From positions 104,656,001 through 104,720,000 of the forward strand of contig OX597819.1 in the NCBI GenBank assembly GCA_951406725.2: a DNA stretch of 64,000 nucleotides. The letters are read 5' to 3'. The notes below the pieces were generated by a model. That model ran no database searches. It had not been told where the DNA came from and saw only the letters and a list, made by a program, of their open reading frames with translations. The translations under genes were made by a program, and so were the position numbers. Below, piece after piece: positions 19,277-51,400 of the stretch. Each line of letters starts with the position of its first letter. Position 1 is the first letter of the stretch. Source of the stretch: Octopus vulgaris. Taxonomy: Eukaryota.

Positions 19277-19302
19277 TTACGGACATTGGAAACAGAAATG
19301 GT
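19277..19302 (-). CDS. Putative terminal coding exon of the Cys-repeat gene
   Basis: Pyrimidine-rich acceptor ttcctttatctccccacggtttgtag; in phase 1 it reads (N)HFCFQCP-TAA; AATAAA on the minus strand at 19139-19134. Confidence 0.5.
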
Positions 19303-49300: not shown

Positions 49301-51400
49301 ACCTAAATATAATATCTTCAAACTGAGAAGGTTTACTATATAATCTTTAATAAACAAATAGCAACGGGGCAATCAGAATTAGAAATCTTATGATCATAGT
49401 TCTAGGATACGAGATGTACATGGTTCTAGACAAAAACATGTTTCTATGAGGAATTATATAGAATGAGAGACATTTAAATAATTCTGTCTATTGAGAAAGC
49501 TGTTGCTTCAGCCCAGACACCAGACTGCACACAGAAACAGCACAATATCAGTATAACCACTACCACTACCACCATTACTGGTAACAACAATTTCCAAGCT
49601 TGTATGTGCATAAGCAGGATCAAAAAGCTAACTTTGAACTTGTCACTCGAATCCCATCCAGTCCTGCCTGTCATTTCATCATCATTGTCATTACCGTCAT
49701 ATTATTCAATAGTGAAACTTTTGAATGTCATCAATCTGCAACAGTACAAAAGAGATCTCACCAGGTTCAGAGAAGAACTACACGTTGATTTTAAAAGCGG
49801 CACTATTTCAACCATTCAGAAAAAGAAAAAAATACTAAAGAAAAACTCGTACCTTCACATATTGCATGAATGAGTTCATTGAAGTGCAGTTTGCAGGAGT
49901 GGCCCTCCGTATAAGCACATATTTCATATACACGCAAACGACTGACATATAAAGGTAAAATAAATTAATTTCAGAAAAATGAAATCTTTAGATATACTTG
50001 GCAATATTTTCTATTAAACATGTACTACATTTAAACTTCGCAACATTTCGTAAACTGTATATCAGCTTCAAGTATCTAGTCGTCTTGTTCACATTCTGAA
50101 ACTAAACTGTCATTGGGTGTGAATTGTTTTTTGTTATTTCTGGGATAGGCAAAATAATTTTTTAATCATGTGACGAATTATAATTTACAAATTGATATCG
50201 AACCGCTGGCAATGAGGATTATTGTTTTACCAATACTAGCACATTTCGCTAGGAAATTTATGTCAACTTTTTGTGAAACATTAGAGAAAAGATGCAGAAA
50301 ATGTTCATTCCATCATAAATGTATACACATGAATAATGAAGACGTATAGCTCAGTGGTTAGAATGTGGGACTCACAGTCATGGGGTAGTGAGTTCGATTC
50401 CCGGACCCGGCTGTGTATTGTATTCTTGAGCAAGACACTTTTTTTTCACATTGCTCCAGTTCACTCAGCTTTAGAAATAATCTGTGGCGTCACTGATGCC
50501 AAGCTGTATCGGCCTTTGTCTTTCCCTAGGATAACATCGGTGGCGTGGAGATGGGAGGCTGGTATGTATGGGCAACTGCCGGTCTTCCATGAACAACCTT
50601 GCTTGGACTTGTGCCTTGGAAGTGCAATCTAGTTGCAATCACATAGCCATTCATGACTGAATGAGGTCATTACTGTACTTATGAATAACAACATTCTGAA
50701 TAGTTATTTTTTCGTGATGACACCAATAACGGCTGATTCGGGTTCAACATGCGATTGCCAGTGAATTGACAAAATCCCGAGTGACCGAGAAACATATATA
50801 ACAATTCCACCACAAGTTCTGAAAATTTCCACCTACGACTGATGAATTTATGTGTTTTATTTTAATACTGTACGTCTATAAGAGATGTTATCACGAAATG
50901 GATACTGCGGTATATGATGCATCTGTCTGCTTTAAGTATGATATAAAGACTAATATCACTCTAGGTTTTCTAAAGTTATATTTCTAAAGACTGGCGTGAA
51001 TTATTCAATAACCACTGTCCTAAGTGCACATTCGTGGATTGGTGCTTATATTTGGAATTAGCCATAAAGTTATTTATCGGCTAAATGTTGATTCCCTACA
51101 TACCGTTGTCCATAACCGCCATGTTTAGATCGATGATGTTAACACCGGTTAATTACTGTTTCGTACTGAAACTCGTTTATTCCAAGCAAATAACGTAATA
51201 ACTAGCAGTAATTATCAGTAGTTTGTACCACCGTGTAATTAGATCTATAAACATATAAACATTCCATGTAAAATAATAAATTTTAAGATTGATAAGAAGA
51301 TATATATACTCGCAGTAAAACGCATCTCGTTTGCGTATAGGATACTTTTGTTCCGCTTTAGGACAAATTTTTTTCAAGGAAACCACACACTCGTCGACCG
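19277..51400 (-). CDS. Multi-exon gene (5'-partial) for a protein with >=8 tandem six-cysteine ~60-aa modules; family not recognised
   Basis: 16 exons read by hand, all with AG acceptor and GT donor and compatible phases, total 1476 nt with no stop. Joined translation: [491 protein letters not shown], then putatively NHFCFQCP*. Confidence 0.9.
21089..21174 (-). CDS. Cys-repeat gene exon A8 (86 nt)
   Basis: gtatattgtag|ACTACTA...TGTCTCA|gtaaga; [28 protein letters not shown]. Confidence 0.85.
21376..24407 (-). mobile_element. Ginger1-type DNA transposon (Gypsy-like integrase + OTU domain), decayed
   Basis: TGT...ACA termini flanked by CCGG at 21372-75 and 24408-11; degenerate subterminal repeats (tatagactggcctagg); integrase motifs [31 protein letters not shown] motifs [38 protein letters not shown]. 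Confidence 0.85.
24562..25442 (-). mobile_element. SINE family 1 copy with nested insertions in its internal microsatellite
   Basis: Tail at ~24562-24790, head at ~25290-25442; contains a short TGTT...AACA element (24814-24946) and a hammerhead-bearing fragment (25010-25160). Confidence 0.7.
25116..25153 (-). ncRNA. Minimal type I hammerhead ribozyme motif (CCGACGA core variant)
   Basis: CTGT-CCGACGA-ACG(GCAA)CGT-GAAACTCAGAGT-A-ACAG; stems I, II and III all pair; GUA triplet. Confidence 0.7.
25836..25929 (-). CDS. Cys-repeat gene exon B8 (94 nt)
   Basis: aaacttttcag|AGAAAGAC...ACCTGCAG|gtatat; [30 protein letters not shown]. Confidence 0.88.
26071..26162 (-). CDS. Cys-repeat gene exon A7 (92 nt)
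   Basis: tttcgtcatttag|GCGCTTT...TGCCCTA|gtaaga; [30 protein letters not shown]. Confidence 0.9.
26890..27310 (-). mobile_element. Probable RTE-like LINE 5' fragment
   Basis: GC-richer island with the motif tgccttctcctag...aaggctag typical of RTE 5' regions; no clear ORF. Confidence 0.35.
28470..28569 (-). CDS. Cys-repeat gene exon B7 (100 nt)
   Basis: cgtatttctag|GATATGAA...CGCTGCTC|gtatgt; [32 protein letters not shown]. Confidence 0.88.
29580..31010 (+). mobile_element. 5'-truncated L1/Tx1-like LINE
   Basis: C-terminal ORF2 region [15 protein letters not shown] and zinc knuckle C..C...[15 protein letters not shown]; ends ...taataaaga next to (TC)n. Confidence 0.7.
31867..31955 (-). CDS. 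Cys-repeat gene exon A6 (89 nt)
   Basis: tgtatattccag|TCGCTTG...TGTGACG|gtacga; [29 protein letters not shown]. Confidence 0.9.
32975..33065 (-). CDS. Cys-repeat gene exon B6 (91 nt)
   Basis: atactttcag|AGAAAGAC...TATTGCAA|gtagat; [29 protein letters not shown]. Confidence 0.9.
33407..33498 (-). CDS. Cys-repeat gene exon A5 (92 nt)
   Basis: ttcctcatccag|GCGCCTT...TGCCCTG|gtaaga; [30 protein letters not shown]. Confidence 0.9.
34488..34587 (-). CDS. Cys-repeat gene exon B5 (100 nt)
   Basis: taatttgcag|TACCACTG...ATCTGCCC|gttcgt; [32 protein letters not shown]. Confidence 0.88.
34780..35730 (-). mobile_element. Highly decayed CR1-like LINE 3' fragment
   Basis: Traces of [22 protein letters not shown]; ends in the ccagcatg..cag tail of the CR1-like family. 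Confidence 0.55.
36000..37300 (-). mobile_element. Decayed RTE-like LINE RT fragment
   Basis: QGSIFG..., AYADDI...LTGNEDKL..., FRMEICAGK read on the minus strand at ~36500-36690. Confidence 0.55.
37706..37794 (-). CDS. Cys-repeat gene exon A4 (89 nt)
   Basis: ttatatcctag|ACGTCTC...TGCAGAA|gtaaga; [29 protein letters not shown]. Confidence 0.9.
39428..39935 (-). mobile_element. Non-autonomous Helitron-type element
   Basis: 5' TCTATATATATAAAA; 3' hairpin cccgagcaacgccggg followed by CTAG; inserted at A^T; no TSD. Confidence 0.8.
40824..40914 (-). CDS. Cys-repeat gene exon B4 (91 nt)
   Basis: aatatgttgcag|AAATCGAT...TTATGCAA|gttcgt; [29 protein letters not shown] (contained in ORF 40778..40993). 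Confidence 0.9.
41414..41502 (-). CDS. Cys-repeat gene exon A3 (89 nt)
   Basis: tctcattttccag|ACGCCTA...TGTCCTA|gtaaga; [29 protein letters not shown]. Confidence 0.9.
42260..42350 (-). CDS. Cys-repeat gene exon B3 (91 nt)
   Basis: atgtgttgcag|TGCAAACT...TACTGCAA|gtacat; [29 protein letters not shown]. Confidence 0.9.
43011..43102 (-). CDS. Cys-repeat gene exon A2 (92 nt)
   Basis: cttcatcttccag|ACGCCTC...TGTGGCG|gtaaga; [30 protein letters not shown]. Confidence 0.9.
43818..44559. repeat. Inverted-repeat element (~160-bp arms 43818-43978 / 44400-44559), each arm with a hammerhead-like motif; probably Penelope-derived
   Basis: Near-identical inverted arms, between (TA)n tracts; AGATAA-CCGAAGA-GATG..CATC-TGAAACTCAGAGT-T-TTATCT. 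Confidence 0.7.
44760..44911. repeat. Near-perfect 152-bp palindrome
   Basis: taatttatatatagagggc...ctaccaaaaaatttttgggtag...gccctctatatataaatta. Confidence 0.9.
45000..46280 (-). mobile_element. Penelope-like element (RT C-terminus, Cys linker, GIY-YIG endonuclease), decayed
   Basis: [69 protein letters not shown]; degenerate hammerhead downstream at 45034-45072. Confidence 0.85.
46331..47045. mobile_element. Penelope-derived non-autonomous element with nested inverted repeats and a hammerhead
   Basis: IRs 46331-46379/46530-46579 and 46430-46530/46950-47045; flanked by (TA)n. Confidence 0.6.
46797..46859 (+). ncRNA. Type I hammerhead ribozyme motif
   Basis: TTGAG-CTGACGA-aAGA..TCTa-GAA-ACG(TGAG)CGT-T-CTCAA; canonical core, 5-bp stem I. 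Confidence 0.65.
48063..48162 (-). CDS. Cys-repeat gene exon B2 (100 nt)
   Basis: tccattgtag|CTCATGAA...TACTGCAA|gtacat; [32 protein letters not shown]. Confidence 0.9.
49853..49941 (-). CDS. Cys-repeat gene, module 1 second-half exon (A1, 89 nt, phase 2-1)
   Basis: tttatatgtcag|TCGTTTG...TGTGAAG|gtacga; [29 protein letters not shown]. Confidence 0.9.
50340..50670 (+). mobile_element. SINE family 2 copy
   Basis: tagctcagtggttaga...gagttcgattcc head; tcttgagcaagacac core. Confidence 0.75.
51310..51400 (-). CDS. Cys-repeat gene, module 1 first-half exon (B1, 91 nt, phase 1-2)
   Basis: aatatgttgcag|CGGTCGAC...TACTGCGA|gtatat; [29 protein letters not shown]. Confidence 0.9.

Follow-up and report, generated by a model that had tools for sequence, protein, structure and literature searches.

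What kind of gene is spread over the small, widely separated exons of this octopus locus, and what might its product do? A sequence-only reading of the 64,000-nucleotide stretch analysed here (the window, G000:C6:104,656,001-104,720,000 within a 2.8-Gb genome) had proposed a hidden gene of 16 or more exons between positions 19277 and 51400, encoding eight repeats of a novel six-cysteine module in a lineage-specific secreted chain. We found an intact gene that appears to be a many-module version of the octopus family containing the salivary protein NP2, with a possible RGM-N-like fold.

Motif scanning, and profiles made from the first exons found, revealed two exon types alternating on the minus strand of the window: exon A holds cysteines C1, C2 and C3 and the motif YP, and exon B holds RL, C4, C5 and C6. 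AG acceptors and GT donors flank every one of the 16 exons, and the phase changes from 1 to 2 across an A exon and back from 2 to 1 across a B exon. Joined, they give 1476 nt with no stop codon and 48 cysteines, as had been claimed, in 491 whole codons instead of the 492 first counted. The cysteine spacings described earlier (7/16/8/7-8/11 in the first seven window modules, 6/18/8/6/11 in the eighth) were confirmed, and so was the conservation of most landmark residues: YP in 7/8 modules, RL in 6/8, an aromatic residue at C4-3 in 7/8 and F at C5+4 in 7/8.

Numbered as in the full gene (see below), exons A and B lie, all on the minus strand, at 51310..51400 and 49853..49941 (module 4), 48063..48162 and 43011..43102 (module 5), 42260..42350 and 41414..41502 (module 6), 40824..40914 and 37706..37794 (module 7), 34488..34587 and 33407..33498 (module 8), 32975..33065 and 31867..31955 (module 9), 28470..28569 and 26071..26162 (module 10), and 25836..25929 and 21089..21174 (module 11, whose exon A is divergent and lacks YP). 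They were placed by splice sites, reading frame and alignment with the orthologous protein P0001; module 4 exon A, the first exon of the earlier proposal, matches P0001 at residue 214, and module 8 exon A is identical to it at 28/29 residues. Both exon types have about 30 codons, three cysteines and a C-x7-C, a weak signal that the two halves of the module may go back to an ancient internal duplication.

Profiles made solely from paralogue exons outside the window recovered 14/16 exons, all on the minus strand and in strict A-B alternation, with no other match in the window; the two missed were both exons of the divergent last module. Twelve of the 14 scored above 8 bits, and the best of 20 locally shuffled windows reached 6.8 bits. 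Because profiles free of window exons found the chain in order and shuffling did not reproduce it, the chain is not due to chance, and we have virtually no doubt that the gene is real and intact.

A single window exon retrieved P0001 (O. bimaculoides XP_052824402.1, LOC128248050), a 704-residue "uncharacterized protein" whose N-terminus is hydrophobic and whose 11 modules are followed by a tail of two residues after the last cysteine. The gene was thus not hidden, its orthologue being already annotated; a description of LOC128248050 in the literature was looked for and none was found in print. Extension upstream, advised earlier as the way to a signal peptide, succeeded: mapped back, P0001 located a 37-nt signal exon with a GTAAGT donor at C6:104,756,787 and six further exons (modules 1-3) between C6:104,739,198 and 104,723,540. 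These seven upstream exons make the window's eight modules numbers 4-11 of 11, so that the estimate of 16 or more exons held and that of eight repeats did not; the gene begins outside the window. Over 21 exons, module 1 exon A being left out because the profile missed it, 442/608 residues (73%) are identical to P0001. From hydropathy and position, the N-terminus is likely a signal peptide and the product likely secreted.

The proposed lower bound of 19277 was not supported. The likely last coding exon (45 nt, minus strand) lies at 17635..17679, where one codon is completed and is followed by TGA at 17677-17675; this ends the gene as P0001 ends, with the last cysteine plus two residues. Both splice sites of this exon are conserved in paralogue B, and its acceptor also in a decayed copy; the kept sites together with the P0001 end make splicing to it likely. 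A likely final exon of 3' untranslated region was placed on the minus strand at 15750..16479, with its acceptor at 16479 and its lower end not fixed. The acceptor and the DNA after it are kept in paralogues A and B, and in paralogue A the counterpart encodes the C-terminus of annotated P0005. The stop codon lies 40 nt before the donor of its exon, the last junction, and within the distance usually spared by nonsense-mediated decay. The same end in the RefSeq model, and the two isoforms annotated for a paralogue (P0002/P0003), suggest transcript support in O. bimaculoides. Both 3' exons are coding in the model of paralogue A and lie downstream of the early stop in the window gene and in paralogue B; they may be left over from a C-terminal tail such as occurs in the relatives on C18, described next.

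Used alone as a query against 1.84 billion proteins, P0001 found P0012, a look-alike of NP2, at an E value of 2.2e-5, and profile A3, which contains P0012, found NP2 at E 3.6e-34. Introns interrupt the P0012 gene at the same three places as the window gene and in the same phases, after the signal exon (phase 1), after C3+1 (phase 2) and after C6+1 (phase 1), which is good evidence that the two genes share descent. Membership of the NP2-type octopus module family is almost certain. The search of 1.84 billion representatives gave 13 matches, of which the 12 named were all from Octopus, and the profile search added four Octopus proteins, NP2 of O. kaurna among them; these matches and the hydrophobic N-terminus of P0001 bear out the earlier view of a lineage-restricted, likely secreted beads-on-a-string protein, within searches that leave room for remote kin in squid or other molluscs.

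In the genome, the family forms the C6 group and a second cluster at C18 (about 15.37-17.29 Mb, loci L041-L060 and L071-L075; parts of the 1.9 Mb were read) with the same exon pairs. The C18 cluster holds NP2-type genes and genes of 1-4 modules with a tail resembling a glycosylphosphatidylinositol (GPI) signal. This hydrophobic tail of 29-35 residues was present in 6/12 proteins examined, all C18-type, and absent from NP2-type and long C6-type proteins. Modules number 9, 11 and about 16 in the three C6 genes, and 1-4 in the C18 relatives, NP2 type included. Since each module is one exon pair with phases 1, 2, 1, whole pairs can duplicate in frame. An AG acceptor and an in-phase GT donor were found in 71/74 exon matches of the family, the three failures all falling in the decayed copy. 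In an unrooted tree of 47 modules, built on 59 columns and with many unresolved forks, those of C6 fall together on one side (support 95/85) and NP2-type modules group separately (99/95), among tailed relatives; module identity and order 1-9 are kept across three genes and two species. This is apparently an undescribed octopus gene family with three architectures.

Structure models of the relatives P0014 and P0004 (predicted local distance difference test score 68.7 for one module and 78.1 for two) have the same helix pattern in all three modules, with three main helices and one short helix predicted per module. The window gene very probably encodes secreted helical disulfide modules, in which the six cysteines would form three disulfides.

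Selection was examined in three paralogue pairs of 495-496 codons, as the ratio of nonsynonymous to synonymous rates (dN/dS). The overall ratio was 0.61-0.74. At 15 scaffold positions it was 0.04-0.10, and at the remaining positions 0.83, 1.04 and 1.00 (intervals 0.64-1.06, 0.82-1.34 and 0.77-1.31). The cysteine scaffold is under purifying selection, as had been predicted: about 15 positions are fixed and the rest change at about the neutral rate. DNA run X2 lists 30 differences over 7251 bases; four are located in exon B of module 9 (89 nt, 31867..31955), all four changing an amino acid, and none in four other exons (372 nt), a clustering with a Poisson probability of about 0.003 over the five exons (calculated by hand, post hoc, on one contig).

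In our proposal, the gene product begins with a signal peptide, continues as eleven six-cysteine modules in tandem and has no tail; it is likely a secreted, soluble chain whose modules are predicted to be helical bundles stapled by disulfides, and which was lengthened by in-frame duplication of exon pairs. Each module would present a different surface, and the chain would thereby bind outside targets by avidity and range, not by catalysis. Such a multivalent binder would act in a gland secretion, most likely salivary. A binder, suggested by the fast-changing surfaces, is the probable answer when set against an enzyme or a structural filler; the orthologue identity of 73%, low beside the 97.3% of one housekeeping protein in the same species pair, also speaks for the proposal. 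For the tissue, chances are about even, the assignment being drawn solely from relatives. In the O. vulgaris posterior salivary gland proteome (PMC7693380), NP2, "of unknown function", is among the proteins detected, as is a protein 83% identical to P0024 (3 peptides); the group labelled NP2 there has another best match. PMC5554399 refers to Fry et al. 2009 for novel putative toxins that lack homologues. The earlier guess of a glandular or venom-related protein has indirect support, through NP2 only. Taken whole, the reading of a binder in gland secretion falls slightly short of an even chance.

Several points weigh against it. The long C6 modules sit apart from NP2 and the tailed relatives in the tree (95/85), and NP2's tissue therefore need not be theirs. 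The non-scaffold dN/dS is not above 1, which relaxed constraint would explain as well as diversifying selection; the paralogue pairs are not independent, and C6-type modules were part of the alignment from which the scaffold positions were selected. The orthologue identity is compared with that of one housekeeping protein only, the 97.3% being a row of Table S5 in PMC7693380. Evidence for the signal peptide consists of hydropathy and position, the fold models are of the relatives P0014 and P0004, and the disulfide pairing is putative.

A wider reading, which we consider somewhat unlikely, sees an octopus-made family of recognition proteins on an RGM-N-like disulfide helix bundle, whose surfaces selection would diversify against prey, microbe or mate; it would comprise GPI-anchored receptors, salivary proteins of 1-2 modules (NP2) and soluble chains of 9-16 modules, and has no Pfam model. 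Fast surface change, the four amino-acid-changing differences confined to one exon, and the GPI-like cell-surface relatives would also suit a protein of reproduction or of self/non-self recognition whose fast-evolving binding partner belongs to the same species, in sperm, spermatophore, oviducal gland, egg coat or immune secretion; according to PMC7656900, genes as old as the octopod ancestor have their highest expression in male reproductive tissue. We regard such a protein as unlikely, given that family members of known tissue are salivary only and that the polymorphism comes from a single DNA run, in one collapsed contig. A structural or adhesive component of mucus, of egg attachment or of sucker secretion, in which scaffold and length matter and surfaces drift, would be compatible with a non-scaffold dN/dS near but not above 1 and with variable module number. 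It would not lead one to expect module identity and order 1-9 to be kept in three genes of two species, and each of the window's eight modules has an even number of cysteines, six, so that none is left over for cross-links; we consider it quite unlikely. The free one- and two-module secreted relatives P0025-P0027 would fit a polyprotein precursor from which active NP2-like peptides of one module each are released, as in venom-type multi-domain transcripts, but the linkers between modules are just 5 or 8 residues long with no common basic cleavage site by eye, and this origin is very unlikely.

No confident full-length match to a characterised family was found in Pfam scans or database searches. 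To that extent the claim of a novel module stood; the module is, on the other hand, that of NP2, and weakly RGM-N-like. With the RGM N-terminal domain (PF06535 RGM_N; RGMB-N, PDB 4uhz and 6z3j) it shares six cysteines, a helical fold (predicted for the module) and a central C-x8-C-x7-C, and weak profile and structure matches are in register; RGMB has three helices and three disulfides (PMC7354924). The outer spacings differ (4/22/../21 in octopus RGM, 7/16/../11 in the module), and unlike RGM the modules are in tandem, with an intron inside the domain and no RGM C-domain. P0001 gave no match to RGM_N at E 10 in the Pfam scan, and 2/13 relatives exceeded the curated cut-off, by summing repeats. 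A 52-module profile scored 10.7 bits against the genome's own RGM-N, a value reached by 25/1000 cysteine-fixed and 0/1000 full shuffles; the hhalign probability was 0.3%. The RGM N-terminal helix bundle may be a remote relative, and a possible ancestor, of the module. Least probable of all is an RGM-N-derived soluble multivalent trap for ligands of the bone morphogenetic protein (BMP)/transforming growth factor beta (TGF-beta) type: the BMP site of RGM is an RGD/RGN loop with Gly101, Leu103 and His106 (PMC7354924), such a loop with His was found in 0/47 modules, which have only Phe at the Leu position, and P0001 lacks the RGM C-terminal domain and GPI anchor, its modules running end to end to a 2-residue tail. 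The genome's RGM gene itself (L061:1486-1713, G000:C2:46.68 Mb, minus strand) has AGSL at the RGNL loop of human RGMB and no BMP-site His.

The two intact-looking paralogues on C6 lie on the opposite strand, about 640-750 kb away (loci L023-L034). Profile searching found 31 exons (about 16 modules) at G000:C6:103,904,419-103,954,319 (+), covered by database models in pieces only (P0004, P0005, P0007 and P0016), and 18 exons (9 modules) at G000:C6:103,971,769-104,014,304 (+). The decayed fourth copy, directly downstream of the gene on the minus strand (C6:104,655,435-104,655,521 and 104,627,463-104,632,506; loci L007 and L009), retains a single intact B exon of the module-2 type, the conserved 3' blocks and three A exons that contain stops or have lost cysteines. 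Introns of the window gene contain broken frames resembling retroelements, at 55426-56895 (+), which we take to be reverse transcriptase/integrase of a long-terminal-repeat retrotransposon, and at 62184-64000 (-) and 29805-30476 (+), presumably reverse transcriptase remnants of long interspersed elements.

At present the gene is one more lineage-specific secreted cysteine-rich repeat protein, held in databases as "uncharacterized". Its analysis ties the orphan salivary protein NP2 to a larger family and gives the module a predicted fold and a possible ancestor. One survey counts 27/44 cephalopod gland protein superfamilies as lacking known function (bioRxiv 10.64898/2026.02.02.703354), and with so many, a defined family with exon coordinates makes tests of tissue, selection and ligand direct. 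For protein engineers, a disulfide helix scaffold of 60 residues whose surfaces vary freely would be of interest; if the recognition-family reading were true, it would be a natural modular binder scaffold.

Among known systems, the nematode DUF19/T20D4.11-like domain (PF01579) provided the sole feature matches in Atlas, at 0.79 and 0.75, below the 0.9 bar for a lead. DUF19 and neuritin are helical cysteine-rich domains, secreted or GPI-anchored. Neither was listed in the Pfam scans; some resemblance of the module to neuritin (CPG15) may exist. LOC128248050 of O. bimaculoides has the same 11 modules in the same order at the identity given above, differing in a small number of additional residues that follow the signal peptide. 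NP2 of Octopus kaurna (ACJ22658.1, UniProt B6Z1Y9) and its orthologues are small secreted cysteine-rich proteins of the posterior salivary gland. They differ from the window gene in having two modules instead of eleven, in lying on C18 instead of C6 and in falling on the other side of the module tree; they share with it the six cysteines at the same spacing, YP, R-L, F at C5+4, a signal peptide and the absence of a tail.
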